A stretch of 63,925 nt of DNA from Negaprion brevirostris (lineage: Eukaryota), in NCBI GenBank assembly GCA_030324005.1, contig JARDVH010000084.1, positions 62,929,735 to 62,993,659 on the forward strand. The letters run 5' to 3'. The position numbers and the translations under genes are program-made. The first letter of the stretch is position 1; each line of letters begins with the position of its first letter. The notes under the pieces were generated by a model. It was given only the letters and a program-made list of their open reading frames with translations. It had not been told where the DNA came from and did not search any database. Below, piece after piece: positions 4,507-41,169 of this stretch.

Positions 4507-4952
4507 TTGTTCCATGAGCTGCTTTTGTTTGGTTAAGACTGGTCTGAACCCTTTTTTTGAAGAAAGAAATGGAACTGAAAGAGTCAATGCTTCAGGTAGA
4601 GCCCTGGCCCCTCTCCAGGGTTTTCAGTTGCTATGTAGATAAGGATGAATCAATTGTATCAGATTGCAATTGACATTTCAAAGTTGGCATGGGGTTCAAT
4701 TTCCCTCCCTCGCATTCATAGGTGATGAATTCTAAATCCTAAGTAATTATAGTGTGCAAAGAAATTTCTTCCTGTTGGTGTTGGGTAAGTCCATGTCTGG
4801 GTTCAAGCTGATCGTGCAAGAAAGCTGATACCTATGTGTCAGTGGCCTATTAGACCGCAGAGCACTTTGAATCTAAGCCCAAGTTCTGTTCTCACACTCA
4901 CAATTCCAGCTGGAAATAATGGATAGAGGATAGTGAGCAGGAGCATTAGAGT

Positions 4953-5107
4953 TATTGGATAGCAATCTAGAGCAAGAACACTGGTGTTACTGGATAGCAA
5001 TCCAGAGTAGAAACACTAGTATTACTTGACAGCAATCCAGAATGGGAAAACTGGAGTTACTGGATAGTGATCCAGACCACGAGCACTGCTGACACTGGAT
5101 AGTGATC
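4953..5107. repeat. Diverged 35-bp minisatellite (about 4.5 copies)
   Basis: Units start at 4953, 4988, 5023, 5058 and 5093; core tactggatagcaatccag. Confidence 0.85.
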
Positions 5108-11430: not shown

Positions 11431-11841
11431 AATAAAGATCAAGAGCCTTGGGACGTCCCTGGGAATCAATTGATCCCTATGGACCTTCCAACATATTGTA
11501 CGGCTCACTTGTCTTACTTCTGAGCTTCGTAAATGTCTGTCAAAGTTTTGCATGTTTATTGATGTCTTTTCTTTTACTTCACAGGTGATTTGGTCCGCCT
11601 TGTTGTCCAGCAAGGGGTGTACACGCGGTGGGCCGTGCGAGGGCTGCTCTTGGATGTTGCTTCGAGAGTTGCCTAGTGCTTCACATCGTTAGTGTACGCT
11701 TAAACTGGACNNNNNNNNNNNNNNNNNNNNNNNNNNNNNNNNNNNNNNNNNNNNNNNNNNNNNNNNNNNNNNNNNNNNNNNNNNNNNNNNNNNNNNNNNN
11801 NNNNNNNNNNACTATCACTGTTTGCTGTGCAGATACATGGA

Positions 11842-12092
11842 TTTGGGCCAGTGTCTGTGGGAGTTTGCACATTCTCCCTGTGATTGCGTGGGTTTTCTCC
11901 GGGTGCTCTGGTTTCCTCCCAGGCCCCAAAAACGCGCTCTTAGGCTGATTGGTGTAACAAATTATCACTAAATTAGTCTTCCCTCAATCTTCCCCAATAG
12001 GCACAGACAAAGGTCATAGGTAGAGGAGGGCACGCATAATGTTAAAATGGTGGTATGGGCTCATTGGGCCGAAGGGCCTGTTTCCTGGGCTG
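11842..12092 (+). mobile_element. HE1/V-SINE-type SINE, partial
   Basis: gagtttgcacattctccctgtgattgcgtgggttttctccgggtgctc core. Confidence 0.75.
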
Positions 12093-13375
12093 TTTTTGTT
12101 CTTTGTTTTTCGTTGTGCCTATCAAATCTTCCAGAATTGGCTTTGTTTAAATTTAGAGTTAAGATCCCACTTTGGAGTTAACCGCAGCAACCTCAAATGT
12201 AGGATGAAGTTTGATTCTGTTGTCATGACAGTATACCTTGACTGTATCATAAATTATGAAAATAGTATTTTTAAAGTTACATTTTTAAAAAGTAAGTCAA
12301 AAATGCACTCTGAGGTCAGATGACTTCCCTCGTGGATGTCAGTTGTTCTCTCTTCTCTCAGGAGGGGACAAAAGGCTGCTTTCCCTGACATGAAAGACAT
12401 TTAGAATTCAATAAATGCTTGACAAATCAACAATCTTTACTTCCTGCTAAAAATATAGAAATCTGTTCAAAGGAGGCAGAACTCCGAGACAGAACGTCAT
12501 CACGCAGGGAGAGAAAAACAAGCAGTTTTCAAACTGCTGGAATGGACCAGGCTAAACAAAAGGGCCTTATTGCAGTGACTTGAAAGAGAAATAAAGAACT
12601 TCCTCTCTCTCTGACTTCCTCATTTCAGCTTCAGGCAAACTGAAGCTGGCAGATTGCCGGCAGGTCGACTCTGGGAGCCATCACAATTGCTGCGACATCT
12701 CTGCAATTTCAAACCCCTTCATTTCAGAAAACATAACAAGGCGACTTGAAAATAACAGGCATTCATCTAAACAGAGACTGAAATCAGTTTCAGTGTTACG
12801 AGTATCACTTTTATTTTCATCTGGACCTAGTTTTGTGTGTGAGTGTGAGTGCAAAAGATTGAGTGGCGGGGGGTGGGGGTGGGATTTTATGTCCTCGCTC
12901 GACTCGAGACCAGAAAATATCTAAAGTAGCCTGTTCCCTATTTAGTTCCTTAATAAACTGTTATGGAAAACTTGCTTGAATGTCTTCCATGAACTTGTTC
13001 TCAAAGGTACTTTTGCCAACTATCTTTGCCAAGTCTATAATGAAGATTGAAGTCGCCACTATTATTACACCACCCCCTGTATGATGCTTCATTACATTTC
13101 TGATTCACATTCTGCTCAATACTATGGGCCCATAAAATCTATTTCCATCTGCACTTCCTGCCCTTTGCTATTTCTTAGCTCCCTCCATACTGATTACGCA
13201 CCCTGATTTTCTGAGATCTTTTTTCACTGCTGCCTTTATCTCGTCCTTTATTAATGTATGCCCATCACCATTACTATTTCATCTATTTGTTTGAAAAACT
13301 AAGTATTTTGGAATAATTAGTTCTTGACCTAGTCCCATGTTTCTCCCCATTTATCCCTTTTGAATCATTTACTTT

Positions 13376-14041
13376 TGGGCCTGAATTTTTTGCTCTTTGG
13401 GTGAGTGCACTTGGTGAGCCCAGAAGTGGGCGTGAAATGCACTTTGGGCAGTGTTGGGCCCTGGAACACGATTCCACAATGACTGATCAGTTAATAGGCA
13501 GCCTGTGTGAAACAGACTGGGAAAGGCTGGGGAGGTGGGCACTGATAAAAGGGAGAAGGTCCCTGTCGCTTCTAAAGTGCTCCGTCAGGAGGACAGCTGC
13601 TGTGGAGCTGTCTCAGAGTGCTGCAGATCTCTACAAAGTAAATAGTAATGGAAAAGCTGTGTGAAGACTGGCTGGGCAGCACACTCAAACACGAACCTCA
13701 ATCCCTGGACAACTTATTAAATTTTATTTTGGTTCTGACATTTCATCTCACCCTGGATTAGGAATGAAACTAAAACTGTAAAGGCTACCTGCTCAATCGA
13801 CCTGCCTGCCGACAATAAAAAGATGGAGCAAGTAAAATTGTGTTTAATTGTTCTCTCAATGGGCTAAATTGCCTGTTTCATTGCTGGCGGACATGCTTCT
13901 GACTCACACAAATGCCCACTGACTGAAATATTGCTTGAGTGCATGATGACATTGAAGTGTGTGCCCGATGTCTTCTCACAAGATCTCTCTTGTTTCCGAG
14001 CCAGGTGTGCGTCAGCTCAAGCGATGTAAAGTTTCTGGCCA
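13376..14041. mobile_element. Non-autonomous DNA transposon-like element
   Basis: tgggcctgaatttt ... aaagtttctggcca imperfect terminal inverted repeats. Confidence 0.5.
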
Positions 14042-14077
14042 CTGTTTTGTATTTTTAGATATAGTACCTATATAATA

Positions 14078-14416
14078 GTTGGCAATGGCCTTGTGGTATT
14101 ATTGCTTGACAATTAATCCAAAAACTCAGCTCATGTTCGAATCCTGCCACAGCAGCTGGTGGAACTTGAATTCAATAAAATAAGGTTTGGAATTAAGAAT
14201 CTACTGATGATCATGAAACCCATTGTCAATTGTCAGCAAAACCCATCTGGTTCACTAACGTCCTTTAGGGAAGGAAATCTGCTGCCCTTACCTGGTCTGG
14301 CGTACATGTTACTCCAGAGCCACAGTAATGTGGTTGATTGCCCTTAGGCAACTAGGGATAGGCAATAAATGCTGGCCAACCAGCAACGCCCATGTTCTGT
14401 GAATGAATAAAAAAAA
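14078..14416 (+). mobile_element. tRNA-derived SINE sharing its 3' tail with the LINE fragment at about 38075-38130
   Basis: gttcgaatcc B-box and a tagggataggcaataaatgctggcc...aatgaataaaaaaa tail. A related minus-strand head fragment lies at about 60360-60490. Confidence 0.75.
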
Positions 14417-14689
14417 TTTTCCCACAAGGTTCCTGACCAGCTATTATCATTTGTATCTCTGTAACAAATGTAACTGCCTTTTTTTATGAATGAGGATCAA
14501 ATTTAGACTTGCATGTTACAAAAGAGTTAGTTACTGACAAAGCATATTAATAGTTATGTGTCATTGAGATGGAGGCATGCACTCATGCTGCCTTCATGGT
14601 GGTCATATATGTCCATAGGAGTGACACAAATGATTGAGAAAACCAATTAGGTAAATGTAACCATTTTGCAGTAACATTTTCTTTCATCC

Positions 14690-15030
14690 AGTGTTTTGAT
14701 AGGGCAGGTAGAGAGGGACTGTTTCCACTGGCAGCAAGGTCAGTAATTCAAGGACAGACTTAAGGTGATTGGGGAAAGAGCCAGAAGGGAGAATGAGGAG
14801 AATTTATTTTATGAATTAAGTTCTTGTGATATTGAATTCATTGCCCGAAAGGCTGGAGATCGTAAGTTTAGCAGTCGCTTTCTAAAAGGAATTGGACAAA
14901 TATTTGAAAATGAAGAATGTACAGGGCTAAGGGGAAATGGGGGAGTAACAGTAATTGAACTGCATTTCCAAACACTGACACAGAAATTATGGGCTGAATG
15001 GCCTCCAATTATGTTCTGTAGCATCACACA
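14690..15030 (+). mobile_element. CR1 LINE 3' fragment
   Basis: Decayed ORF2 end followed by the atgggctgaatggcctcc tail. Confidence 0.65.
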
Positions 15031-16649
15031 ATTTAGTTCATTCTTACACCCAATGAAACTATAACTACTTTTATTAGCTTTTGGTCGCTGTCCTTTTTCT
15101 TCCAAATGCAATGCACAAATAGATGTTCAGGGGGTCCATGCAGAAGATTTGTACTTTGCTCTGTATCATCTCCCGTCATCTGAGCTGAGTTTCAATTTTC
15201 TCACGGAGTGATAGGAATGAACTTCCTCAATGACTCAGGTAATCACCCTCTGAACATGCACCTCAGCCAGCCACATGAATTACAATGAGTTGTCATCTAG
15301 TGGGCAAATGAACCGTGTTGCATAGAGCAGGAATTTTCCTTGTCTATGCCGAGTTGATGAGACTTACCTNNNNNNNNNNTGATAGGTCTCCTTGAGCTCA
15401 GAAAAGGAAAAGTCACCCAAGGATCCCACTGCTGATCTCCTTCTGAAAAGTGTGTGTGTGTGTGTCAGAGGCTGGGTGATAACAATCAATCAGGTACTGA
15501 GGACTTCTGACACTTAATTATACACCACGGGAAGTCGCCACCTTCAGGGTAGAGGGCAATAGAATAGCAGCAGTGGAAGTGGAATGGAAGAATGAAATTA
15601 GCTGTTACCAGTGGAGGAACCTCTGCTCTGTTAACCTGTAGCGTCTGCCCACATCCTTTGCCTTCAGATTTTCCCCATTCTATCTTTATTATTCATGCCA
15701 GTTGGCTCATTTTACTTAACACCTACATGCATGAGTTGGATTTTTCTCCATATTTCACATTCATTGTGAGTAGCACTCGCAGCTAAAAGCTCTTTGTTTA
15801 GGGAAGTGCATCATTTATAAAGGCAATTTGAGACCAGGGTAGGCCTGGCATCATTCACCATGAATTCCACATGCCAACTTTAAATAAAACTAACTTGAGA
15901 TGAAGTTTTATATCATATCCACTTCAGAGATGTTGCATTCCAAATGGCAAGAGGACCTATGGCCAGATTTTCTCGATTTGCACCTTCTTCATTTTGCCCA
16001 TTGTCCATTTTGTATGTTTGAGTGTGCATGCAAAACCTGGCACAGGCATAAAATGGATAGAGCATCTAATACATAGTGTAGTGCGTATTTTTAAAAATTC
16101 ATCTGTGGAACAAATGGCCAACACTTATTGCCCATCCTGAGTTGCCCTTGAACTGAGTGGCTTACTAGGCCATTTCTGAGGACAAGTGAGAGTCAATCAC
16201 ATTGCTGTGAGCTCTGGATTTGAACNNNNNNNNNNGTTTATGTATTAATGATTCAGGCTGTCACTGGACCATCACTTCCCTGATGCATGAAGCAAGGTAC
16301 ATCAGGAATGGTAGTTTTATAGTTCCTATACTGAACTGATTCTCCAGAAGTTATGAGTTTAATTCCCAGCATGGAAATTGAATTGAATTCTGATAGAAAT
16401 TCTCCTATGAAAACAAGATTAATGTCCTTAAAGAAAAGGAACTGCTTACTTGTCTGGCCTAAATGTGACTTTCATTGCATTATTCTCCCATCTGGGACTA
16501 AGTCTTGACAAAGGTGGGAATATGGTGTGTTTTCCATTACAGAGGTCAGAGGGAAGCCATGCCATAATCTTCCAGCCCCAACCTCGTTAATTATTCTTCT
16601 GTGGGTTTAATGCTGTATTCCGCAGTGGGGCAGGTATGATGGTTCTGGG

Positions 16650-17310
16650 TGTTATGTTGCAAAGGCGCCCAACATCACTGACTCACCATTGAAGAACGAA
16701 GATGGACCTCTGGAAAAAGATGATGGATCTCCAGGAGCACTCTGAGGCTGGAAGATAGACCTCCTTAGTGACACTGAAGCTGGAAGATTCACCTGACGAA
16801 TGCTTCCCTCCACCCACTGCTGTGCTGTTCCAGTGTCTAGGGTTGCTGGCAGCCTCCATCCTGAACACCAGGGGCAGCCCCAGGCATTGTACAGGCGAGT
16901 TCTGACTTCTGCATGCCTCATTGTTCCAGATGTGTTCTGGACCAGCGTGTTATCCCACTGATGCCACGGGGAATTGGGACTGCAAGGGATGATTCCTGTC
17001 AGACTTTCATCTGAAGCCCATTAGTGGGATGCAAATCACCTGGAAGGTGTCAGTGAACATAGCAAATAACATTATGCTGAAGTGGGCTGGTGCCAATATC
17101 AAGCCCTCTTTCACTCCAGTGGAGACGGGGAAGGGAGCCAAAGCCTTATTGTCGTCAAAGATGTGAGCCTGCGTACCCTTTTGGAACAGTTGAACCATCT
17201 GAACTAATTTGCCTGGGCACCCAAACGGGCTCACAATCTTCCAGAGCTCTTCACGGCTGATGGTTTTGAAAACTGTGGCTAGGTAAATAAAAGTGGTGTC
17301 CACAGCTGGT
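16650..17310 (-). mobile_element. RTE-clade LINE reverse transcriptase fragment
   Basis: ORF 17007-17303 reads FIYLATVFKTISREELWKIVSPFGCPGK...FPVSTGVKEGLILAPAHFSIM, matching RTE RT (FxDLxKAFDTVSR..LW..FGCP..GVKQGCVLAP.LF). Confidence 0.85.
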
Positions 17311-18198
17311 GAGCAGCAAACGCCACGTGAATGGTTCCCCTACCTTTCCTGAAAGCCTCTGATGCAAATAAGGAATATCTACTGAATGCTGTTATATGAA
17401 TAGAGTTTAGCTGGCAGCAGTGTAATATAAAGTTGAGGAATTTTGAGGATTATTGGCAGCAGAGGTCTACATTTTCCCTCATCTAACTGGCTGAATTCAT
17501 GTTTCCAGAATGTGCAGGATCAGATCCCCCCCTTCAATTGTGGGTTTCCAGCCTCTAAATGGCCTTAATTTGGAGAGGCTGCAGGGAGAGCAGTAAGTAG
17601 CAGGAGGTCACATAGTGACAAACACTGTCTCCAATTTGGGTGCTGGTTTATAGGGATTTATAGTCTAAAGGTGCAGAAAATCATTGAGTCATTGGGTGGA
17701 AATTTCCATGCAGTGGGTGTAATGGCAATCGAGATGGGACAATGTGGCAGGAGCTGAAACATCAGTTTCCTGTCGGTGTCCAATGACATGGGAATATGCT
17801 CGCCTGCTCATCATGGCAGGTCTCGCCATTCCCGCCAGAGACCAGCATGAATCCCTTTGCATCCCAGGGGAATCTGGTTTGGAACCGCAAAATAATTAAC
17901 AACCCCACCATGTTTGCATGCAGGACTTGTATGATTGTGTGAAACTTAAACTCATTTAAAACTGAAAACTAATGCACTTTTATTAGAAAGATGTATCATC
18001 AATGAAAGGCAATTTCACAATTTCTGAATGTAATCTGGGCTGGTAACCAAACTCAGATCATTTCAGTTAGTATTTTACCAACCACCTAGTCCTATTTGAA
18101 ACCGTGCAGTGTAAGCTATGATAGTTTCCCACCAGCAAGCAAAGGGTTTCAAACAAAACACCATTGGCAGGGTTAGTTGCAAGAATGGCAGCACTCAC

Positions 18199-18420
18199 AG
18201 AGGATGAGCAGGGTTGGGCCACTTTGGGAGCGTGTGGTGGAGAATCAGTCATCTTCGTGAGGACTGGCATTTCATCATCTGACACAGAGTTGGCAGGCTT
18301 GTCCTTGGCAGTGGTGGCCTGCTTGCTGGGCTCAGCAGGCTGAAGCTTTACAGGCACAGAGACAGGCATGATGATGGGCATGAGGTGATCCACCTCTTTA
18401 GGCTGCTTCTCTCCTTCATC
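18199..18420 (-). other. TRERF1: Isolated TRERF1-homologous exon (orphan exon or duplicated gene fragment)
   Basis: [66 protein letters not shown] matches recalled TRERF1 EEGEK...[20 protein letters not shown]...[17 protein letters not shown](VRMTLSPPHSP). Acceptor gtctgtacag| and donor |GTGAGT; 222 nt, phase 0-0. Confidence 0.8.
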
Positions 18421-20719
18421 CTGTACAGACAACCAAAGGCTTTCAGCCTCAGTTACAGAGGGGTCCTAGCAAAGCAACACACCTGAGACAGATCAGATAG
18501 GATCTAGCAGATTAATAAAGTAATATACCCTCAGTTTCTAAATGCAGTTGTATATTCAGTGAATTTTTTAAAATAGGTTGCAAGATGCTGCCATACGAAT
18601 GTACATACAAGTTAGAAATCTGTTGTACTTTGCATGATTGGCTTAGCTTCTGCAACGGTCATTTGGTTTTTATTTTCAACGTGGACATTTCTAATGGATT
18701 CCAATGTGCACTACTGATAACTAATATTCACTTTTGAGCAAATCCATGCTTTAAGTAAAAACATGCATGAAATTAAATAAACTGTGCTCACAAAGCACAG
18801 TACAGCACCAATGCATTATCCAAATATGTCAATCACACAAAATGGTTGTTCCAATAATAGTGCATCATATTTCTGTGCTCAAGGGAATTCTGAAAATGTA
18901 TTAAACCTTAAACTGGCCTTTCAGCTTCCATTCTAGTTCATTCTGGCACTTTTGGGGAGACTCTCCCCTCCTACTCCAGTTAACGTTGTCACACTTTCAA
19001 CATTCTTCCTTGGAAAGATTATGGCCCTTCTCATCATTTCTTCTGTTTCAATCTCCATCTTTCACATCCCACTGAACGAGCCTCAACATCATTCTAAACC
19101 ATGTCCTGTTGCTAATGAAAGAGAGCTCATCCATTATTTATTGTGAACAGGCACTCCTTATGAATTCCCACCTACAACATGTAACAGCAGGATTATTTCC
19201 ATTAGCCTTAGGGTTGTTGAATTAGCAGCACCAAGGGCAGGGCAGCTAGGTCCTGCTGAGTTTAATCAGAAAATGCAAACATGTTGTCAAAGNNNNNNNN
19301 NNNNNNNNNNNNNNNNNNNNNNNNNNNNNNNNNNNNNNNNNNNNNNNNNNNNNNNNNNNNNNNNNNNNNNNNNNNNNNNNNNNNNNNNNNNNATCCCATT
19401 GTCCAGAATTGTCTCCCCCTATCCAATCACCCCCACCGCCAATGGAATGTTCGGAATTTATCTGACCTATGTGACATGGGCATATTGGGACTAACATAGA
19501 AGGAAACCTGGGCAGCCCGCGAGGATTGGAAAATGGAGACCTCCAGTGACAGTGGATCCTGGAACATCACGTGGAGCAGTGGCTGGGCGGAACATCTATA
19601 ATGCGGATCTTCTGGCTGCAGGAGCTTCCATGAGGTGGATATTTTCCATCATCAGTGGATAAATTGATGTCCAGGCAGCTTTAAAATATGGCACCCATAT
19701 ATGACAGCGGGACACACATCATCCAGCCCACCCTGCCATGCAAATTGTCTGGAAACTTCCATCTGCATAATTAATTAGGCATCTCATGGTTTATTCCCAC
19801 TAGCTTCCATGCTGGGACACACTCCCAATGCCTGCCCTGCCACTGGATTTAGTCCTGGAATGGCGAGTTTAGATTCAGCAATCTTGCCTCAGTTGAAACA
19901 CAGTCTAAAAATGCAATCATGCCACCTTGGGCAAATATCTTGGGTAATACAGGATGTTGAATTTATTACCCTGTGGGTGCATTTCACAAGCGGCCTAAAA
20001 TCCTTCCATTACCAGTCACCGATAAACCATGACAGGTTGCTTTTGAAATAAAGTTGCAGTTTTCTTTATCAGAAAGGCATGATAGCCACACCATATACTT
20101 TGGAGGATGAGTCACAGTCTGTATGCACCATTCCAGTTGTGTCACCTGTACTTGATTCAGCCGACAGCATGCCAAGCTGCTGCCCATTTTTCCATTACAA
20201 TAAAGGTTATTACCTAATAGTAAAGAATGAATGGGCGTGTCTGAATTTGTCATTCTGAGTGTCGTCCTTATACCTGATTGATTAACATCTTCACTTCTGG
20301 AATGAAGAGTTACTGATTGTGTGTTGAAATCCACACATTGCTCAGTTTGTGACCACACNNNNNNNNNNNNNNNNNNNNNNNNNNNNNNNNNNNNNNNNNN
20401 NNNNNNNNNNNNNNNNNNNNNNNNNNNNNNNNNNNNNNNNNNNNNNNNNNNNNNNNNNNNNNNNNNNNNNNNNNNNNNNNNNNNNNNNNNNNNNNNNAGA
20501 TCTCCTCCCTCCACTATCTAACCCTAGATCCCCTCCCCCCACTAACTAACCCTATATACCCATCTTTCCATTCCGTTCTACTCCATGTACTTATCAGCCT
20601 TATTTTAGGTGCATCTCTGATACTTCAACTATCCTGCGTGGTAATGAAACCCACCAGCCTACTTTCACACCACCTGACTTTCTTGAATTCCTTATTTATT
20701 TGAGGTAGGACTAGGAAAT

Positions 20720-21375
20720 GCATTTGTAGAATCAGAATGATATAACCTAGAAGGAGGCCGATTGGGCCTGCAGTGAAAGCTAGCCAATTCGTCTCATTCG
20801 CACCACGTTCCCCCCCACCCCCTTCCCCCACAATCTTCTATCCAATTCCATGTTGAAAGTTCTTATTGAATCTATTCTACCCTACTTTAAGGTATGGAAG
20901 ATCACAACAACTCACTGTGTTAAAAAAAACACCTTAAAGGAGCTTCTGGTGTTTTGGTCAATCACCTTCAATTTGTGTCCCCTGCTTACTAACTGTCCTG
21001 CTCCTTAAAACAGTCTCTGCTCCTGTACCATTTATGAATTTGAACACCTCTATCAAACCTCCCTGAAATCTGCTCTGCACTATAAGGAGAACAACTTCAG
21101 TTTCTGTAGTCTGATGTAACAGGAATCTTTCATCACCAGTAACGTTCAAGTGAATCTTTACTCCATCCTCCCCAAAGCCTTGACAGACTTCCTAAAATGT
21201 GGTGCCCAAAGCGAACACCATGTCAGTGAATGATAAAGCTTGAGTATAACTTGCTTGCTTTTGTATTCTATGCCTCTATTTGTACTGCCATGGATCTAGT
21301 ATGTATAACAGTCACCTCAATTTGTTTTGTCACCTTCAAAGATTTGTTTATGGACATCCCAAATTCTTTCTGTAC
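20720..21375 (-). mobile_element. CR1 LINE 3' fragment
   Basis: GGLIEVFKFING remnant (ORF 20958-21149) and a CR1 tail. Confidence 0.65.
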
Positions 21376-21514
21376 AGCTACAGTGGGGTATACTTTCCCA
21401 TCGCAGGAAGGTCAGGAAATTTGACAGACCTCAGATGGGAATGTCTGATCTTGGGACGGCAAAGAATGGAAAATCCTATCCTGTGCCTGAAAACTGGCTA
21501 TCCAAAAGCCAGAG

Positions 21515-21841
21515 ATCACAGAATCACAGAATCCCCTCAGTGCAGAAGGATGCCATTTGGCCCATCAAGCCTGCACGAACAACAATCCCCCCAGGCCCTA
21601 TCCCCATAACCCCATGTATTTACCCTGTTAATCGCCCTGAAATTATGGGGCAATTTAGCAAGGCCAATTAACCTAACCCATAAGTCTTTGGAGTGTGGGA
21701 GGAAACCAGAATACTCAGAGGAAGCCCACGCAGACATAGGGAGAATGTGCAAACTCCACACAGTCACCCAACGTCAGAATGAAAGTCGGGCCCCTGGCAC
21801 TGTGAGGCAGCAGTGCTAACCATTATGCCACCATGCTACCC
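21515..21841 (-). mobile_element. HE1/V-SINE-type SINE (CR1-type tail)
   Basis: Full head, core and atgggccaaatggc...gattctgtgat tail. Confidence 0.88.
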
Positions 21842-22613
21842 ATGTCTGAAAACCAAACATTTTAACAAGATGCATAAATCTTAATTCTTCTGAAATGAGT
21901 AAAATTACTTACTGACACCTTTGGCCAGGTGTTGCATTGATGTGGTGATGTGACAGATTACTTATAGTCTTTTTGCATGTTCTGAGTGGTCTGAGGGACT
22001 CTTGCTCCAACTAACCTGGCTCGGCTCAATCAACCTAACCCAACCTGAACCTCATGACCCAAAAACCGGCAAGGTTTGAATTTCAGCCCAGACTTAGTCC
22101 CAAGATTGCCAGTTTTGGGACGCTGCATTGGTACCTGAGGTTCATTTAACATTGTACCTTTTAGTTCATATTGCCTCTCCACATTCTTCTAACCAAAATA
22201 ATTATTTATATAGTGCCTTCCTTAACCTAAGAGCATTTTAGAACGAATGAAGAACTTTTGAAGTGTAATTTCTATTGTACTGTAGAGAATACTGCTGCCG
22301 ATTTGCACACAGCAAGGTCCCACAAATAGCATTATGGTGGCCGAAATTCCCCGACCTGACCTGAGGCTGGAATTCTCCAGTCCCGCTGCAATGAATGGAG
22401 GAAGGGCTGAGCACCAAATTCTCCAGTTTCACTGGCGTTGGTGACTAGATAATTGCTTTTCGTGAATCAAGGACTAAATTTTTCTACGGCTTTATTATTG
22501 CTTTATCATCTGCAGTAAGTTATTGCACTGCAAGCATTGCCGAGAACTCTGCCGAAATTGACCATGAAAAGACAAAAGAATTGGCGCATCATTGAATGCA
22601 ATTCAAATAACTT

Positions 22614-22619
22614 TTTATT
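22614..22619 (-). terminator. Candidate poly(A) signal of the RGS2/13-like gene
   Basis: AATAAA on the minus strand about 1 kb after the stop. A proximal one occurs at 23574-23579. Confidence 0.45.
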
Positions 22620-23640
22620 GGTGACTTTCATTGGAACTACAGATGCAAGTTAATTGGAAAACAATTGTTCACAAAACAAACCAGAACACAATTCTGAAAA
22701 TAGCATATTTTTTTACATTTTAAATCAGATCTTTGAATCATTTAAGCCCCTCTTAAAGAAGTATTGTTTCATTCAGTATTCAGAGGGGACTTGTCCATCA
22801 TGCAGGATGGCATTGTCTTACATAAAGAAACACACAGACACACATTGCATTTTGTAGCTTATCACAGTTTAACATTGAAGTGATTGGCAGTGTTGCATGA
22901 TACAGAACCAATGTAACAAGAACTCAGGATAGTTAACCCTTTCCTTTGTAATAGCCAAGCCCCAAAACATTTTAACCTGTCAGTGGGAGTGTGCACCTGG
23001 TTAATCTTTTTAAACCTGACACCCAACTCTGTACTTAGAAGCACAAATCCAATCTTGTTAGAGATTTTAGATGCAGGTTGTACATTCTCCACTGCCAGAT
23101 AAACATGTTGCAAAATTGAGGTATTTAACTGTGTAAGTACACAAATCCTCACAATGGTGGAGGAATGGTATTCTCACGACGTTAATGCACTTTAGAGCAC
23201 CCTGCTAACAGATCCTCTCATTGCCCTCATTTCCTGTGCTCTCTGGTTCACCCTTTCTCCCAGGTCTGCTCCTCAAAGGCCCCAGTAAGTTACCACCTCA
23301 GCTGGCCAGGAGACTCTCAACCTTATTTTTTTGCCTTCTACTCTGTGGGCAGATACCTGGCCCTACTTGGCAGCCATCTGCAGTATTGCACACCAAGGCT
23401 GGAAGCTCAGCTCAGTTGAAGGCAACCGAGCCTTCTGCCTGCCATGGTTTTTGACAAGACTCTCTTGGTTCTCTCTGTCATGCTTTCTACATCCCAGGCT
23501 TGGCCTTTCTGTTCCGTGTCCTATCAGTTATGAGGACAAGCATTCTGGTGTTATTTGACATCACACCAAATACTTTATTCACAGCAGAAGATACACCTCC
23601 ATAAGAGATCAGCATCTGCTCTTGCGAAGCATAACAGCAT

Positions 23641-23826
23641 TCATGTTTCATGATGGTCATGGCTATTATTGAGTATGTTCTGGTAGATGTCTGACTGAAG
23701 GAACCTGCTGTAGCCATTGTTTTCCATCAGACCATAGATCTTCTTTTGTGCTGCTTCAAAACATGTGTAAGTTGGATGCTGCATGTTTTTAGTGACCGCG
23801 TCTTTGGTGTAGTAATCCAAATTAAT
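23641..23826 (-). CDS. R4-family RGS gene (RGS2/RGS13-like), terminal exon 5 (not in ORF track)
   Basis: Acceptor ttttcaatcag| then INLDYYTKDAVTKNMQHPTYTCFEAAQKKIYGLMENNGYSRFLQSDIYQNILNNSHDHHET*. Exons total 29+105+62+167+186=549 nt, i.e. 182 aa. Confidence 0.95.
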   Translation of the reverse strand: MNLDYYTKDAVTKNMQHPTYTCFEAAQKKIYGLMENNGYSRFLQSDIYQNILNNSHDHHET

Positions 23827-24115
23827 CTGATTGAAAAAAAATCATAGTATTCATTAGTGATTGGTTTACATCATCGAGGAACATTGAAGTATTTAATCCA
23901 CAGTAATTATTAACTATGTTTTGCAAAGAGAAGCTCAGACCAATGGTCATGTACTTATTGCCTTTGCATTGATATGAGGCTCAGTATCATGTGGCACATG
24001 CAGCCAGTATTGGCGGGCATTCGATTGGCATCGTTACTTCCTTAGACATTTAGGTTTGAACAGTTTTCTATGACGTAAGCCCCATAAAAAGTAAGGGCGA
24101 TAGGTCAGTAATTAC

Positions 24116-24282
24116 CTCTTTTGGAGACATTGGTTCAACAAAATCTGAGAAGATCTTTCTTGCTTTGCAGGCTTGTTTTGTGGGTGACTTAATTTTCTTG
24201 TAGTCCTCACAAGCTAGCCAGAACTCAATGTTCTCATCATTGTACTCTGATTTGAGGAAGGTTTTAAAAGCAATCAGGCCAT
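24116..24282 (-). CDS. R4-family RGS gene (RGS2/RGS13-like), exon 4
   Basis: 167-nt exon with AG/GTAAT boundaries. Encodes [55 protein letters not shown]. Confidence 0.97.
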
Positions 24283-24939
24283 CTAGAAAGAATAAAGGAA
24301 ACAAAGCATTAGTCACTGTTGCAACTTTATTCCTTTGTCACAGTGATTACATTACACTGAAAAACCTACACTAACAATATTAATCTATAATGTTTACCCT
24401 ATTGATTGATCCCAATATCTTTGATTATTGCTGTATTGAGTCTATACTGGGGCCAGTTAGCTCAACTGGTAGGGTACCTAGCATGGAGCTTGGTCAACAG
24501 CATGGAGTTTGATCCACTTGTAGCCTGCCTCTGTGCCCTACCCATAGTAAACAACATGGCACTTTGCCGTAGTTCAGAAAATAAACACTAAGGAAATGCT
24601 TTCACAGAGAACTCAAGAACAATTCTACGCTGTAGGCTAATGCAGCCTTTCCATTTTGTACAGGTGGCTGCAATTTTGACATATGGAACAAGATTTGCAA
24701 TGCCACATATTGCTAAGGGACGGAGAACAATGTTATTACTTATAATGAGAAATATTTTGATATTAATATCATTTTCCTTAACTTATTACCATTTCAGTGA
24801 ATCTTTGCTAAATTAAGTCATACTTTCTTCTTGAAGACCCATATTTAAGAGGCAGGGTTGTGAGGAATTGTTTATCTGTAATTATTTCATTTTAACAAGA
24901 GAGGGATAGTCTAGAAAGCTACATGTATAAGCTGCTTAC

Positions 24940-25001
24940 ATTTATGAGCCAGTAGGTTGTCCAGAGATTCAGCCCACTTCAATACTTCTTCATGGGAGGG
25001 A
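24940..25001 (-). CDS. R4-family RGS gene (RGS2/RGS13-like), exon 3
   Basis: 62-nt exon with AG/GTAAGC boundaries. Encodes (N)PSHEEVLKWAESLDNLLAHK(Y). Confidence 0.95.
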
Positions 25002-25229
25002 CTGTGGATAAAGTAGAAATAAAATAAATATTGATGCTTTTGCTTGAGAATAGATTATGANNNNNNNNNNNNNNNNNNNNNNNNNNNNNNNNNNNNNNNN
25101 NNNNNNNNNNNNNNNNNNNNNNNNNNNNNNNNNNNNNNNNNNNNNNNNNNNNNNNNNNNNAATAAATAGTTCTTACATTTTACTTAAACCTCAGAGAGCT
25201 CTGAAGTGTAGTTAATCACAGTAACTTAC

Positions 25230-25334
25230 TTCAACGTTAGTTTTGCGTCTCTCGATTTGACTGTCATTTGTTCAGAAGCATCAGTCTTCTGATGATGCAA
25301 AAGGTGCGAACATCGGTTCTTCAGCCCTTTAATG
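25230..25334 (-). CDS. R4-family RGS gene (RGS2/RGS13-like), exon 2
   Basis: Acceptor ttttcttttacag| and donor AA|GTAAGT; 105 nt, phase 2-2. Encodes IKGLKNRCSHLLHHQKTDASEQMTVKSRDAKLTL. Confidence 0.88.
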
Positions 25335-26057
25335 CTGTAAAAGAAAATCATTAACATTAAGAATAACGCAGGAAAACCACTGCAAGTGGCCTTGTATTGT
25401 ACTTGCATTAACTATGCAGCATTAGTTATCACATATCCATCTTATTCCCTTTCTAGCTCAACTTTAAGAGCAACACTTACTGATGTCCCCTCGCAAGTAA
25501 ATGAGCAAAGAAGTAAGATAAAACTCAGTGTTGTCTCCAAGAGCCACGCGACACAATATCTACCCATTTCCTCAAATTAATTTTCAGCTTAATGCTATAA
25601 GCATTGTTTTTGTACCAATCATTTTTGGTTTGCTTTTTTCTTCAAAATGTTAGCGAAGCACTGGACTAAAACTATCGTTGTGCAAGATTCTGGCAGATTA
25701 TCTTGACTGCCCTTACTTATGCACAGAAACAATGAGGGACCTTTGTGCCCCAGACAAGCCGGTTGCCTTCTGATATCTCAGCCAAGTGGCCACTAATCAC
25801 GCACACAGCTTATCACTGAGTGCCGGCAGGTAATGGCAAAATCCCAGCCAAGTTTGATCCACTGCTCACATGACACCCTGTCCAGCTAAATAGGCTGGGC
25901 AAGAGTTTTGAAAATGCAAAAATTTTTTCGCACAGCATGCACTAGAAGAACCTCAGTATCTTATGTATTTGCCAAAGTACCTGACAAATATACAAGTAAC
26001 TTTACGGAGATCTGCGCAACAACCAGTTTGAGGTTTAAAAGATTACTTATTACTTAC

Positions 26058-26086
26058 AAGCTGTTCTCCTTTATGTTAGCTGGCAT
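26058..26086 (-). CDS. R4-family RGS gene (RGS2/RGS13-like), exon 1
   Basis: aagATG MPANIKENS(F) with phase-2 donor TT|GTAAGT. A TATA-like CATAAATA lies about 180 nt upstream. Confidence 0.8.
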
Positions 26087-26239
26087 CTTGTCTTGTGATT
26101 CTCGGTTTATATGCTGCTTGGAGAAGGTTTCTGTTGCACGAGCAGGATCAGATCGCTTTGCAAGTTTTTCCTCACTGAGAACTGCAGCTCAGTTTTTACG
26201 ATTATACTCCAGCTGCTGTCTCTGCCAAGAGCTATTAGC

Positions 26240-26400
26240 TTCTGCCCTCTCTTCTTGCCTGCTTCTCTATTTATGCACTCAGGCTGACGTTGAGTCAGTG
26301 GGCGTGGATTAGCTGTACCTGTAGTGATTTGTTATTGTATAACAAGCAAGAACCAGTTCCAAGATAGGGGAACCTTATTTAGTACAGCGTTGACGTACGA
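26240..26400 (-). promoter_or_regulatory. Proximal promoter of the RGS2/13-like gene
   Basis: CATAAATA (26268-26275), TGACGT CRE half-site (26285) abutting AP-1 TGAGTCA (26291-26297), GGGCGTGG GC box (26300-26307), CArG-like CCTTATTTAG (26373) and a second TGACGT (26391). Confidence 0.65.
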
Positions 26401-26859
26401 ACCTTAGCAACTCTGTTCAGACTGCCTCAGGCAAAACAAGATTAGGATTGCATGACAACAGCAACTAAGAACACAAACCATATTTTCGGCTCATTGAGAG
26501 AAAGCAAGTATTGTGTCAATAGGCAGCCACAAGAAGTTAGATTAGAAAGCATTAACATTATGTGAATTCTTCTAAAGGTGTGACCTGTCCTGTGCTAAAT
26601 TCTTGTACATTTTCTGAACACAAACAAAGTAGGCTGCTCACCTTTAGGTATGCTAGCCATGCATCATATGATATTGCAGGTAACTTTGGTACAAACTGCA
26701 CCGCAGTTAGAAAAGGCAAGCAGTTTCTGTCCATTTAAAACTCCTTCCCTTTTTCTTTTAAGATGCAAGAACCAACTTGTCTGTGCTGCACTTTTGTTCC
26801 CCCGAGCTACTTCTTTATTTACGTGTTTTCAGGTTTTAAGAGAGTGCTAAAAAGACCAA

Positions 26860-27045
26860 ATCAAAACCCCAAAATCTCAGCCAATCTGACAGCATCTGTG
26901 AAGAGAGAACAGAGCTACCCTTCCGAGCCTGGATGACCCTTCGAGCCAACTCGAAACGTTGGCTCTATTCTCTCTCCACAGATGCTGTCAAACCGGCTGA
27001 GGTTTTCCAGCCTTTTCGATTTGTGTTTCAGATTCCAGCATCCAT
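26860..27045. mobile_element. Second Penelope-type inverted terminal remnant
   Basis: tgacagcatctgtgaagagagaacagagc ... gctctattctctctccacagatgctgtca inverted arms around atgacccttcg/ctcgaaacg. Related pieces at about 55716-55845 and 62275-62395. Confidence 0.55.
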
Positions 27046-27147
27046 CAATGTTTTACTTTCAAATCAAAATTCAAGATGGACTATTCACTACTTAAGAGCT
27101 GAATTTTTGTCAACTATGCAATGTTCAGGCATTTACCATTTGAACCT

Positions 27148-27436
27148 TAGAATCCCTACAGTACAGAAGGAGGTCATTTGGCCCATTGAGCCCACACCAA
27201 TAACAATTCCACCCTGGCCCTATTCCCATAACTCTATGCATTTACCCTACTAATCTCCCAATCCATCTAACCTATGCATCTTTGGATTGTTGGAGAAAAC
27301 GGGAGCACATGGAGAAAACCCATGCAGACACAGGGAGAATGTGCAAACTCCACAATGACAGTGACCTGACCCTGGGATTGAACCCAGGCCCCTGGCACTG
27401 TGAGGTATTAGTGCTAACCACTATGCCACCATGCTG
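27148..27436 (-). mobile_element. HE1/V-SINE-type SINE (CR1-type tail)
   Basis: Same family as 21515-21841. Confidence 0.88.
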
Positions 27437-27699
27437 CTCTTGGCTAGTACTGCATGGGATTTTGGACTGCATTGTAATTTAGGGCGGATTTTGGGATCAT
27501 TTATTATTTATGTTCTAAATTATTTTTGGACAGTAAAAGTCATTGCAAAAGCAGCAAAAAGGAAATTAAATCAGTATTCACTGAACCCATCCAGTTATTT
27601 TCGTCTATTTCCTCTTCCTTTGAACTTTTTGAATCATTTTGGTCCAAAAGTCCTCCCCACACAAAAAGCAAATGGACACTTAATTTATCCTGTGATTAT

Positions 27700-28070
27700 T
27701 GTCCACAATTTCCAGGCTTTTACCCGGTACAATACTGAGGGAGCGCTGCACTGTTGGAAGTGTTGACTTTGGGATCAGATATTAAACCTGGCCTGTCCTC
27801 TCTGATGGATATAAAATGCCCCAGGGCACTATTATAATGAAGGGCAGAGGATTTCTCCCCACTGTCCAAGCCAACCTTTATCCTTAAGCCAACAGCACTA
27901 GAACAGATTATTGAATCTTTGACTCTGATGATTGTGGGAGCTTGCTGTGCACAATTAGACTATTGCATTTCTTATGTTACAATAGCATTTACAGTTTCAT
28001 TGGCTGTGAAGCACATGGGAATGCTTTGAGGTCAAGGAAAGCAGAAGGCAGTGCATTAATGTAAGTCTTT
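27700..28070 (+). mobile_element. DeuSINE/SacSINE1-like element
   Basis: tactgagggagcgctgcactgttgga...gggagcttgctgtgc core. Confidence 0.7.
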
Positions 28071-28574
28071 CCATCTCCCCCCAATAAAATTACAGGAACA
28101 TGGAAGCTGTGTGAATGAGGTATTGTTATGATTCATTCATTTTGAGATGCGGTGGGAATTCAGACAAAAATCACAATCAATCTCATGACTTCCAGATTGG
28201 GAATACAGTGGTTTACTGTTATTGTCACTGGGTGCCTTAAACACAAGTGATATATTTTGGAACAGGTGCTTTGCACGTCAGGAAAAACCTCAATACCGAG
28301 AGAGATGTAAGAATAGAGAACTTGACACCACAAGGAGTAGTTAAAGTGAATAGTATAGGTGCATTTGGAGAAGTGAGAAAAGTGCATAAAACATGTATAT
28401 GCAACATTGTGATGACTTTGGAATAGATTCCCACTCTTAACGGTTGACGTTCAATATCCTTGTCATGATCACCTGAGAATCATAAGAACAAAATATAAAA
28501 TACACATTGGAAATTTGTCTGGAATCCAGTTATAATGGGTTTGTTGATCTACTGGGAGTGAAACATTCACATAT

Positions 28575-29405
28575 CTGAACATACAGATTACCAGGGGTTG
28601 GCTATTCAGCCCCTTGAGCCTATTTTTCCATTTGATAAGATCATGGCTGATCTAATTGTGGCCCCAACTCCACGTCCCATCTATTGTCAATGCCCTTGGA
28701 CTCCCAAGCATCCACGTCTGTCTTAGAAATATTCAATGACCTTGCCCCTTCCACTCTCTGCGGAAAGGTTCTATTGACTCACTATCCTCTGGAAGAAATA
28801 AAGTTCTCCTCATCTCTGTCTTAAACTTGAGACCCCTTATTTTTAAACTAAGTTCCCTAGTTCAAATCTCTCCTGCAAGGGGAAAAATCCTTTCAGGATC
28901 CACCCTGTCAAGTTCCCTCAGGATATTATACAGTTTACGGAACGATCATGTTTCACTCTTCTAAATACTGATAGATACAGGTCCAGCCTGTCTAATCTCG
29001 CCTCATATCATCCCCATCCCAGGAATCAGTAAGATGAACCTCGTCTGAACTGCTTCTAATGCAATTTTGTCCTTTTTCAAATAAGGAGGCTAAAACAATA
29101 GTCAAAGTGTGGGCAGGGATTCTAATGGCACTCCAAATGTTGCCACCTAACCCACACTGATGCCCATTAGTGTTGGGGCCAGAAAATCCCCCCAGCTGTA
29201 CAACTTCAGCAAAATTTCCCCAATTTTATTCCATTCCCCTCGTAATATATGCCAACATTCCATCAGCCTTCCTAATCACTTGTTGTACCTGCATACTAAC
29301 TTTTTGTGATTCCTGTTCTAGGACACCTAGATCTATCAACGTATTCCGCACTATCCCTCCATTTAGATGATACGCTGCTTTTCTGTTCTTTTGCCAAAAT
29401 GGGCA
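28575..29405 (-). mobile_element. CR1 LINE 3' portion
   Basis: YHLNG..DLGVL..SQKVSMQVQQVIRKADGMLAYITRGME plus a CR1 3' tail. Confidence 0.85.
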
Positions 29406-29694
29406 AAGTGTACCACCTTCTGCAACTATGGCTATTGGCATAAGAGGGGCAGGAATCCCAAACAGCAGTAAATTGTGTATATCAAACCAAATGTATTTCA
29501 CCAACTCGGAGAGTGCCGACTGGAACTCAAAGGTTCAATCCCTTAAAAAAAAGCACAATTAAAATAAATGATGCACTGTAAGTGAAAAAAGGAATGGATG
29601 GATATGCTGATAGTGATAGATGAGAAAGGGCAGGAGGCAGCTCAACTGCGGCGTAACGGTTGACAAACTCTGACACCAAAAAGCTCCAACTTCG

Positions 29695-29810
29695 TCCGTG
29701 CCTGGGATTCTCCAGTCCTGCTGCTGTGAATGGAGCTTTGGCTGAGCGTCAAATTCTCCATTCCCACTGGCAGTGGGGTGGGAATGAACGAGATCGGAGA
29801 ATCCCGCCCC
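29695..29810. mobile_element. MITE family B (related copy at about 22338-22440)
   Basis: gggattctcc...ggagaatcccgccc inverted ends; shared internal ctgctgtgaatggag..gctgagc..aaattctcc. Confidence 0.65.
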
Positions 29811-30130
29811 AAATGTTTCAATACCATGAACTACATGCCCCAGTGTAAGCCTGACCCCTTTACAGAGCAGAAAAATAGCATGACATTGTTTCTTTCTCTG
29901 AAAGGAATAATTCCAAATGAGAAATATTGTTGTTGCTGGGAGCCTCAGGAAAGGATTGGAGGAGAAAAGAGAAATGTAATGATGGAATGCTTTTTCGATG
30001 TATGTACCAATAGCAAATACAAATGAAACCTTTCCACTTACGTGAAGGATCAGTTGAAGCTCACTTGGCAGCATGCTGACCTCCAAGTCATGAGGGTTCT
30101 TGCTTAAGTCCCACACCAGGGTTGAGCATA

Positions 30131-30409
30131 GAGGGTCAGTACTGAAGGAGTTCTGCACTGTCAGAGGGTCAGTACTGAGAGAGTTCTGCACTGTCAGAGA
30201 GTCAGTACTGAGAGAGTTCTGCACTGTCAGAGAGTCAGTACTGAGAGAGTTCTGCACTGTCAGAGAGTCAGTACTGAGAGAGTTCTGCACTGTCAGAGAG
30301 TCAGTACTGAGAGAGTTCTGCACTGTCAGAGAGTCAGTACTGAGAGAGTTCTGCACTGTCAGAGAGTCAGTACTGAGAGAGTTCTGCACTGTCAGAGAGT
30401 CAGTACTGA
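30131..30409. repeat. 33-bp minisatellite, 8 full copies plus a partial, continuing into an 894-nt gap
   Basis: Unit gagagtcagtactgagagagttctgcactgtca; copies are near-identical. Confidence 0.98.
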
Positions 30410-31782
30410 NNNNNNNNNNNNNNNNNNNNNNNNNNNNNNNNNNNNNNNNNNNNNNNNNNNNNNNNNNNNNNNNNNNNNNNNNNNNNNNNNNNNNNNNNNN
30501 NNNNNNNNNNNNNNNNNNNNNNNNNNNNNNNNNNNNNNNNNNNNNNNNNNNNNNNNNNNNNNNNNNNNNNNNNNNNNNNNNNNNNNNNNNNNNNNNNNNN
30601 NNNNNNNNNNNNNNNNNNNNNNNNNNNNNNNNNNNNNNNNNNNNNNNNNNNNNNNNNNNNNNNNNNNNNNNNNNNNNNNNNNNNNNNNNNNNNNNNNNNN
30701 NNNNNNNNNNNNNNNNNNNNNNNNNNNNNNNNNNNNNNNNNNNNNNNNNNNNNNNNNNNNNNNNNNNNNNNNNNNNNNNNNNNNNNNNNNNNNNNNNNNN
30801 NNNNNNNNNNNNNNNNNNNNNNNNNNNNNNNNNNNNNNNNNNNNNNNNNNNNNNNNNNNNNNNNNNNNNNNNNNNNNNNNNNNNNNNNNNNNNNNNNNNN
30901 NNNNNNNNNNNNNNNNNNNNNNNNNNNNNNNNNNNNNNNNNNNNNNNNNNNNNNNNNNNNNNNNNNNNNNNNNNNNNNNNNNNNNNNNNNNNNNNNNNNN
31001 NNNNNNNNNNNNNNNNNNNNNNNNNNNNNNNNNNNNNNNNNNNNNNNNNNNNNNNNNNNNNNNNNNNNNNNNNNNNNNNNNNNNNNNNNNNNNNNNNNNN
31101 NNNNNNNNNNNNNNNNNNNNNNNNNNNNNNNNNNNNNNNNNNNNNNNNNNNNNNNNNNNNNNNNNNNNNNNNNNNNNNNNNNNNNNNNNNNNNNNNNNNN
31201 NNNNNNNNNNNNNNNNNNNNNNNNNNNNNNNNNNNNNNNNNNNNNNNNNNNNNNNNNNNNNNNNNNNNNNNNNNNNNNNNNNNNNNNNNNNNNNNNNNNN
31301 NNNCCTGCATCTGACTGATTGGCCTTCTATTTAGAAGTGCTGAGATAATGGAAGCCTCTCCTCATTTTTCATGCCACAGAAGTTAAGGGCACTACTGAAG
31401 AATGTACACAATTGAGCAACATGAATGATCACTGTGGGAATACTCAGTGTAATAATCAGTGATGGCATCTCTTGAGCAAAGAGCAAATATTAACAAATAT
31501 GTGAAATAAAAACAAGAGTTACGAGGTTACTTCAGGTTGTTATTAGAGAGGATGACAAATGACAGAATTTAAAGGTTATTGATATTTAATTCAAACCAGT
31601 AAAGTCAACACATTTTGATGAAAGAAATTTTGGGCAGATGTGTTTTTGTTTAGCCCTTTGCTAAAACGGTTTGACTACTCTTAGAGGGCCTAGCTAATGT
31701 AATATGATTTCACAAAGGGGAAACGTTTTTATAAAAAAGGTATGGCCATGTTCCACATATAGTAAGTTTTTGACTTCTCCTG

Positions 31783-31962
31783 AGAAGTCTCACAACACCG
31801 GATGAAAGTCCAGCAGGTTTATTTGGAATCACAAACTTTCAGAGTGCGGCCCCTTCATCAGGTGACATGGAAGGAAAAATAAACCTGTTGGACTTTAACC
31901 TGGTGTAGTGAGACTTCTTATCGTGCCCACCCCAGTCCAATGCCAGCATCTCCATATCATGG
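31783..31962. mobile_element. Penelope-like element terminal remnant in inverted arrangement, with hammerhead-like core
   Basis: About 42-bp inverted repeat (31783-31824 vs 31877-31918) enclosing minus-strand cacCTGATGAaggggccgcactctGAAAgtttgtg. Confidence 0.65.
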
Positions 31963-34900: not shown

Positions 34901-35530
34901 CTCATTCCCACAACCTGCCACCACAGAACCAAGTTCGAGACCCATAACTGACACTGTTTCCTGCTACCAAAGTGGAAGTTCAGCTCATGGCCTCATGGCA
35001 TTGATATTAATACAGTGTAAATAGTCTTCGACAGTAATCACTTACCTACTGCACTTATCAATATGTTGTTCGAACAATCAATGAATCCACTTGTCCCTTT
35101 CAGGAATGGGGTGTTAGTAACTTGTACAACAAGTTCTAGTTATGATTGCACCAGTCAATACACTAAGGAGTTGAGTAATCCACCCTAACTTTGCAGTTCA
35201 GGATGTTGCATTAACCGGCCAAAAGTGATGAGACACGATCTTATCATTATAACTAATCATAAGAAATGCAAAAACATTCAGCCGTGTTATTTCCTGACTA
35301 TGAATTGCTTTCATTATAATTCAGCTTGAAAAGAACACTACAAAAATTAATTTATTATGTGTGTACTTTTTATGATGAACAGTTTCCACCCTTGAGTACA
35401 GATCATTTAGAAATATATGACTATTTGACAAAACAAACACTTCTATCTTCTTCATGACCACACACCATTGCCAAATATGGTTATTGCCAACATGCTGCAA
35501 TAGTTTCTTGGTGCTTAGAGTGTCTGCAGT

Positions 35531-36430
35531 TGTGATCAGACCCAGGTGAGATTCCCCAAAGGTTGTTGGTCCTTCAATTTGTCACCATCTGGCTGGGATC
35601 CTCCCAAATTATTACAAACCCAGGTAAGGAGAGATGACTGGCTTCATGCCCTTATTCAACCCATGATGTGGAGATGACAGCGTTGAGTGAAGATGAAGGG
35701 GCAGTGTTCCAAAAGCCTGTGATTCCAAATAAACCTGTTGGATTTTAGCCTGGTATTCTGAGACCTCTTACTTTATTCAGCCCAGTCTCTGCAGGTAGAA
35801 ACCTAATAGGTCCCCTTTCCTTGGGATACATTTTCCATTCCCAGTGGGTAGGATTTTACAACTATGCTCGCTCTGAAACCAGAAAACCCCACCCGAGGCG
35901 ATGAACCTTTCAATGGTCCGGCCCTCGTTTGTTACGATTCCTGTGGCGGGCAGAATGGAAAAACTTGTCCCAGTGTTTAGAAGAGCTAATTTAACCAGGC
36001 TTTTTCGAGTTAAGATAGAGGAAGTTTATTAATTACTAAAATGATAAGGCTAAATGGTAAAAAACACATGTATCTCACATTCATATGGATTAGAATAATT
36101 GAGGCCAATTGTAAGCGGATATAAATTAAAAGTTACATAGAAAAGTCTTTGAGTTGTGAAGAATAGATGATGATGTGTTGCAATTAATGCAGGTTGATTC
36201 CAATAGTTAACTCTTTGATTGATGTGTTCTGTAGTTTGGTGGAGAGATTTCAGTTCTTTGTCCAGCTGTGATCTTTCTGTTGGCTGGATTGACATTCATA
36301 GTCAGATAGAGAGAGTGTTTTAGATGTTCCTGCAAAAAGTGGCTATTTTTGCAGGGGCCCTGCCTCAGCTACTGCTTCGTCTTCAGTGCAGCAAACTTCC
36401 AGCTGCTTTTCTCACAGCATACATACACAC
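35531..36430 (-). mobile_element. LTR-like element with nested Penelope remnant and MITE
   Basis: Minus-strand ctcacctggg..aca ends with an aatttggga PBS-like tract, resembling the end of 39404-40262. Confidence 0.35.
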
Positions 36431-38710: not shown

Positions 38711-38899
38711 CGGCAAATGATTTTATTAATAGATATAGTTAACAGTGGTAAAAATAGACTTTAATTTCTATTTTCTTCTTAATATCACTCAACATTATCC
38801 TGACTCAGTTAATCTGCTGTTGGAGTGCTCAGACGTATCAGTGAACTTTATACTCGACTATGCCTATGTGTTCCAGGCTAGTCATTCACATTGTACCCC

Positions 38900-39380: not shown

Positions 39381-39403
39381 TAGAACACTGTGTATTGACT
39401 ACA

Positions 39404-41105: not shown

Positions 41106-41169
41106 TAAAAAAAAGCTCCAATTTTCCTCTGATCACATGGTTGACCAAGAATCTCTCCCACACTTGCCA

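Follow-up and report, generated by a model that had tools for sequence, protein, structure and literature searches.

Introduction

Isolated exons that keep their intron flanks and stand at a non-syntenic site are known from transposon-captured fragments and segmental duplications (Pack-MULE, Helitron capture, LINE transduction). A similar picture may be produced by genome scaffolding. Spacers of exactly 100 N are written into assemblies by various other tools besides proximity-ligation scaffolders. For proximity-ligation (Dovetail/HiRise) assemblies, passages in PMC5545040, PMC5982815 and PMC5411772 describe joins written as unsized 100-N gaps, with scaffolds as small as 4.8 kb being incorporated (PMC5545040), while sections of PMC4772016 and PMC12505867 describe, respectively, scaffolds inserted into gaps, with misjoins counted, and four misplaced contigs relocated by hand. 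Small scaffolds misplaced in HiRise-type Chicago/Hi-C assemblies are few-kilobase pieces between exact 100-N gaps, bearing sequence from a gene whose position in relatives is a different one.

In the human 1q31 cluster, the R4 RGS genes follow the order RGS18, RGS21, RGS1, RGS13, RGS2. A table in PMC6585022 places these five genes at 1q31. TRERF1 (TReP-132) is, according to a passage of PMC7288346, a co-repressor of the ELM2-SANT type and a relative of MIDEAS and ZNF541. Here we describe a window (the whole stretch of shark DNA that was analysed, 63,925 nt) in which one TRERF1 exon stands beside two R4 RGS genes; our literature search found no account of this locus.

Results and discussion

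A single intact exon of TRERF1

The exon lies on the minus strand at 18199-18420, after the part of TRERF1 that encodes the first zinc finger. It is free of stops, 222 nt long and thus divisible by three (74 residues, phase 0-0), and is bordered by an acceptor ending in tttggttgtctgtacag and by a gtgagt donor (18193-18198, minus strand), all in agreement with the first-pass annotation. When its 74-residue peptide was compared with 5.8 billion proteins, the best match was TRERF1, with an E value of 1.2e-36 that is far beyond chance, and 52 of 61 candidate proteins matched. About 49 of them are named TRERF1/TREF1 or are hypothetical proteins that share its ELM2/zinc-finger Pfam set, and one turtle entry bears an unrelated name; the names ZNF541 and MIDEAS do not occur among the 52, nor does any of these proteins contain an RGS domain.

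In a comparison with 13 chondrichthyan TRERF1 proteins, the exon showed no difference over 74 residues from Cetorhinus (P0002) and Mustelus (P0003), 1-3 differences from six other sharks and 7-9 from a chimaera and rays, its residue state being that of galeomorph sharks. Cetorhinus and Mustelus belong to two shark orders, and their full TRERF1 proteins are 92.9% identical. The ends of the exon coincide with peptide boundaries in the aligned relatives (SPKQ before DEGEK at one end, PCSSS before E at the other), and the match to TRERF1 begins and ends at the splice sites, an agreement in boundaries and phase which is based on protein alignment and splice signals, not on the relatives' genomic DNA. 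As the peptide is identical and the match stops where the splice sites are, the exon is, judging by sequence, TRERF1 itself, the identity already proposed in the first-pass annotation.

The kinship of TRERF1 with ZNF541 and MIDEAS (PMC7288346) might recommend an ancient paralogue, be it one of these two or a relic of genome duplication, but the complete identity to TRERF1 orthologues and the names of the matches place the exon closer to TRERF1 than to either of them, and we dismiss this reading. A processed retrocopy, which was also rejected in the first-pass annotation, would carry joined exons, lost introns and a poly(A) tail, while here intron sequence and splice sites are found on both sides of an exon joined to no other. 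Foreign DNA is contradicted by the galeomorph state of both the exon and the neighbouring RGS genes. Taken together, these origins are extremely improbable.

A second acceptor extends the exon by 15 residues

The span originally assigned to this feature does contain the exon, but the conserved unit is longer, as a second, intact acceptor at 18465, 45 nt upstream of the first, falls outside it. This acceptor consists of a pyrimidine-rich tract with tag at its end (18466-18490, minus strand) and precedes a 45-nt in-frame extension (18421-18465, minus strand), the 3' end of which doubles as the short-form acceptor. The frame is open throughout, and choice of the upstream alternative acceptor would give an exon of 267 nt, encoding 89 residues. 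This long form is identical at 89/89 residues to Cetorhinus maximus isoform X2 (P0002) in tblastn. The 15 extra residues are matched at 15/15 in P0002 and in Heptranchias (P0006) and at 13/15 in Mobula (P0014), and they occur in a diverged form in the lizard Podarcis (P0051). Although the extension was found in only 4 of the 52 proteins, each match was represented by one isoform, and its absence from the other 48 is therefore uninformative.

Given the match of the extension and the intact sites, the exon piece has kept both acceptors, the donor and all residues. These similarities suggest that the alternative 3' splice site is an old, conserved splice choice of TRERF1. Alternative splice sites of human TRERF1, which may concern other exons, are mentioned in a section of 10.1101/2024.05.20.595048.

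Other TRERF1 exons are missing from the readable window

The TRERF1 proteins of Cetorhinus (P0002) and Mustelus asterias (P0003) share the exon peptide and its boundaries, and the former also shares the upstream acceptor; in contrast to a TRERF1 gene, the window holds this one exon, without a zinc-finger, ELM2 or SANT exon. A profile built from 13 chondrichthyan TRERF1 proteins matched 1 of 3,636 readable stop-free segments of at least 10 residues, namely the exon, and tblastn with 14 and then with 52 TRERF1 proteins returned this exon alone; both searches cover the readable sequence within the 63,925 nt, 4,458 of which are N. The collinear zinc-finger, ELM2 and SANT exons of a complete gene were thus not found nearby in readable sequence, and the profile and tblastn searches both bear out the earlier statement that the adjacent exons are missing. 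A near-identical short or fused protein was likewise not found in a 50%-identity library, where one of nine matches exceeded 70% and was a full-length TRERF1, although this is weak evidence.

Two RGS genes lie to the right of the exon

The nearest gene is an intact R4 RGS gene of five exons encoding 182 residues, RGS2-like, at 23641-26086 on the minus strand (exons 26086-26058, 25334-25230, 25001-24940, 24282-24116 and 23826-23641; Pfam RGS). Its best PDB match is RGS2 by a small margin, and a tree groups it with the Pristiophorus RGS2-like protein. A second R4 RGS gene of five exons, RGS1-like by exon map and tree, occupies 43471-46405 on the same strand (Pfam RGS), the start of its exon 1 probably lying inside a 196-N gap; for its last exon the best PDB match is RGS1 (E 8e-20, as compared with 7e-14 for the next best). 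Both genes are placed among galeomorphs in the tree. Since public annotations mostly call both of them 'RGS21-like', the names used here are provisional. At 26058-26238 (minus strand) the RGS2-like gene is without the upstream start of its relatives: TTG stands where they have ATG, and the frame changes ahead of the following ATG, so that the N-terminus is shorter, like that of P0058.

The TRERF1 exon is located about 5.2 kb past the stop of the RGS2-like gene, on the same strand. With 67 RGS proteins as queries, no RGS exon was detected to the left of 23,500, and no gene of note was recognised left of the TRERF1 exon, where the sole informative Pfam match is a reverse-transcriptase fragment. 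The exon had been described as lying inside the RGS cluster; the foreign neighbourhood stands, but with both RGS genes to its right, the exon is beside the visible cluster. If the order RGS18-21-1-13-2 holds here, as we assume, the exon would be at the edge of the cluster. The window resembles the human cluster in having an RGS1-like and then an RGS2-like gene on one strand, and differs from it in the TRERF1 exon beyond the RGS2-like gene and in having no separate RGS13-like gene between the two (26400-43400, readable sequence interrupted by gaps of 894, 363 and 320 N).

It may be asked whether the two genes could be spliced together. Exons 1-4 of the RGS2-like gene total 363 nt, so that the exon-4 donor is in phase 0, as are both TRERF1 acceptors, and at the start of the downstream intron (17979-18198, minus strand) the frame stays open to a TAA at 18067-18069, followed by AATAAA at 17984-17979. 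In principle, the RGS exon-4 donor could thus be joined in frame to either TRERF1 acceptor, with read-through of the TRERF1 donor to the stop and polyadenylation signal. On one hand, the placement might then be real, and a young copy of the TRERF1 exon would be used in an RGS2-TRERF1 chimera in one shark lineage. On the other hand, the RGS2-like gene has its own AATAAA at 23579-23574, 65 nt past the stop codon, and hexamers of this kind occur often, the one at 17984-17979 being 1 of 12 on the minus strand in 16236-23643 (about 7.4 kb). We regard the chimera as highly unlikely. The stop and the hexamer are also compatible with a predicted intronic polyadenylation form of TRERF1, which is possible, or with chance.

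TRERF1 and RGS genes are mostly on different chromosomes in relatives

As a proxy for linkage, we compared the lengths of the sequences encoding the TRERF1 and the RGS orthologues of each species, equal lengths being taken as the same chromosome. The lengths differ in six of the seven sharks and rays that could be compared: Cetorhinus (TRERF1 116,078,346, RGS 105,773,345), Heptranchias (92,458,575 and 89,404,954), Heterodontus (120,885,548 and 137,194,213), Chiloscyllium plagiosum (105,880,166 and 94,731,289), Narcine (321,486,706 and 257,710,454) and Rhinoraja (70,679,918 and 60,992,755), all three galeomorphs scored being among them. As a control, the two RGS orthologues share one length in all four species for which both lengths are available. 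Six of the 13 chondrichthyan TRERF1 entries do not enter the count: for Mustelus and Scyliorhinus, two carcharhiniforms and possibly the closest relatives, an RGS orthologue is not listed; in Pristiophorus and Callorhinchus the length for TRERF1 is missing; for Mobula the two genes come from two different species; and for Chiloscyllium punctatum the RGS match is on a 2-Mb scaffold. Linkage of TRERF1 with RGS1/RGS2 is therefore not conserved among these species, and the first-pass view that TRERF1 is foreign to the RGS neighbourhood finds support here.

The one shared case is Pristis pectinata, where TRERF1 and both RGS orthologues (P0013, P0061, P0127) are on a sequence of 144,684,616, unlike in the six others. 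This may reflect a sawfish fusion, and it says nothing on the distance between the genes.

These data bear on the idea of a true rearrangement or of a nested gene, in which the left part of the window would be the TRERF1 locus itself, brought here by a lineage-specific breakpoint, or the RGS genes would reside in a TRERF1 intron. The 100-N gaps may hide any length, the other exons might be in gaps or beyond the window, and no other gene is recognised left of the exon; the shared chromosome of Pristis, together with the fusions of catshark chromosomes described in a section of PMC11979771, is in keeping with such a history. Nesting, however, demands a downstream intron of more than 18 kb without a readable exon and an upstream intron of more than 45 kb containing two same-strand RGS genes, a breakpoint at this place would split TRERF1 in two, and in six of the seven species the genes are on different chromosomes. 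We thus consider this explanation very unlikely.

The readable flanks of the exon show no mobile-element ends

A search for terminal inverted repeats or target-site duplications over 11811-20358 gave only short matches of 70-90%, at chance level, though element ends could fall inside gaps. No transposase or helicase Pfam domain was found in 321 of 321 ORFs of at least 55 residues (whole window), nor in 188 of 189 ORFs of 36-54 residues in 1-20400, 36 residues being the lower size limit and one ORF at a gap edge being omitted. Terminal repeats, a target-site duplication and coding remnants of an element, as expected of a transposon-captured fragment, are thus lacking in the sequence scanned. 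Rfam gave no match, and composition does not distinguish the exon unit (GC 0.425, CpG 0.25) from the RGS side (0.417 and 0.24).

The flank had been called non-repetitive. Self-BLAST, which detects only repeats with a second copy in the window, indeed found none between 16221 and 21515, but the downstream intron contains a decayed LINE reverse-transcriptase fragment at 17010-17339 on the minus strand (Pfam RVT_1, E 8.2e-6, under the curated cut-off), which is interrupted by stops and frame changes to either side. In sequence terms it reads as an ordinary intron resident. Being broken, it is much more ancient than a copy could be that is recent enough to have stayed pristine.

Repeats are present elsewhere in the window. 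Tandem arrays lie at 30130-30409 (period 33, 98% matches, running into the 894-N gap), 4935-5102 (period 35) and 61339-61467 (period about 14-32 nt). A dispersed SINE-like family, putatively HE1, occurs in both orientations, 66-85% alike, at 1662-1849, 11840-11951, 21520-21847, 27142-27445, 41168-41333 and 48564-49392. The adjacent contig ends 1367-1926 and 5242-5506, which precede 100- and 99-N gaps, are 72-86% alike and constitute an old local repeat.

DNA-level duplication or transposon capture was the explanation preferred in the first-pass annotation. In a recent event of this kind, 3-7 kb of TRERF1, comprising one exon and intron sequence, would have been copied beside the RGS2-like gene, too recently for decay. 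Intron flanks are kept and the neighbouring TRERF1 exons are absent, both as expected from such an event, and a nearby 100-N join of the same type is correct. Time is no obstacle either. With 206 non-synonymous sites, an intact copy allows a neutral divergence of up to about 1.5% at 95%, which is a weak clock; at the shark mutation rate of 7e-10 per base per generation reported in a section of PMC10587355, this amounts to about 2e7 generations. A near-identical copy and its parent may even have been collapsed by a short-read assembler into this one contig. Nevertheless, unlike known captured fragments, the locus shows neither element ends nor a target-site duplication nor signs of decay, and a pristine exon is found next to an old LINE fragment; there is no amino-acid change, two acceptors are intact, unsized gaps stand at both limits of the unit, and a separate near-identical protein is missing from the library searched. 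A recent duplication therefore seems unlikely, although it retains some probability because sharks mutate slowly.

The exon unit is bracketed by 100-N gaps

A further feature, omitted from the first-pass account of the locus, is its gap structure. The window consists of 18 contigs of 0.8-6.1 kb separated by 17 gaps. Five gaps are of 99-100 N (at 1974, 5536, 11711, 19293 and 25061), all of them within the leftmost 25.2 kb; each of the gaps from 25161 on has a size of its own. The exon is on a contig of 3,057 nt (16236-19292), which, together with two other contigs and two 10-N gaps, forms a 7.5-kb unit (11811-19292) between the 100-N gaps 11711-11810 and 19293-19392. The latter, our suspect join, is 827 nt upstream of the long-form acceptor. 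No gap between 11711 and 25160, the two limits of the unit included, has a repeat match on each of its sides; at the 10-N gap at 16226 a resemblance across was seen by eye and was not confirmed by BLAST. The 100-N gap at 25061-25160, which interrupts the second intron of the RGS2-like gene, is a join of the same type with correct order and orientation, and a 100-N gap alone is thus no sign of error. Reading 100 N as an unsized long-range join follows a convention of other genomes' assemblies, which may not be that of this one.

An apparently foreign piece bounded on both sides by presumably unsized joins is what a scaffolding misjoin would look like. We infer that the 7.5-kb unit, or a stretch that could extend left of 11811, is a misplaced piece, comparable to those of HiRise-type assemblies. 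In the scenario that we favor, short-read assembly would have split TRERF1 into pieces of a few kilobases, and unit 11811-19292 would have been an input scaffold positioned on long-range signal alone, the scaffolding having put it (or a longer leftward block) next to the RGS2-like gene and added 100-N spacers of arbitrary size. In the genome itself, splicing would connect the exon with the first-zinc-finger exon on one side and the RHRPEP exon on the other, by way of either of the acceptors 45 nt apart.

The evidence is indirect throughout. What speaks for misplacement is the 0/74 difference and 89/89 identity, the intact splice sites, the bracketing 100-N gaps, the different chromosomes in relatives and the lack of mobile-element ends; what speaks against it is the correct 100-N join at 25061-25160, the shared chromosome of Pristis and a composition equal to that of the RGS side. 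On balance, we consider it very probable that this is an ordinary, working TRERF1 exon misplaced next to the RGS2-like gene by scaffolding. As a normal exon on a fragment that was likely joined to the wrong genes, it would represent an assembly error and not new biology. Misassembly, mentioned in the first-pass annotation as a fallback, is the account that best fits a unit of 7.5 kb with a 100-N join at each end, in a 64-kb region of 18 contigs.

Conclusions

If the unit is misjoined, the TRERF1 model of this assembly probably lacks one exon, and the finding serves only to warn against taking single intact exons beside 100-N gaps in this assembly for duplications. A real and young copy, in turn, would be a rare case of exon shuffling that can be dated, in a vertebrate lineage that evolves slowly, and a true chimera would show exon shuffling at its very beginning, with a truncated RGS2 acquiring a TRERF1 tail. 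Wherever the exon belongs, its sequence supports the existence of an alternative TRERF1 acceptor common to sharks, a ray and a lizard.
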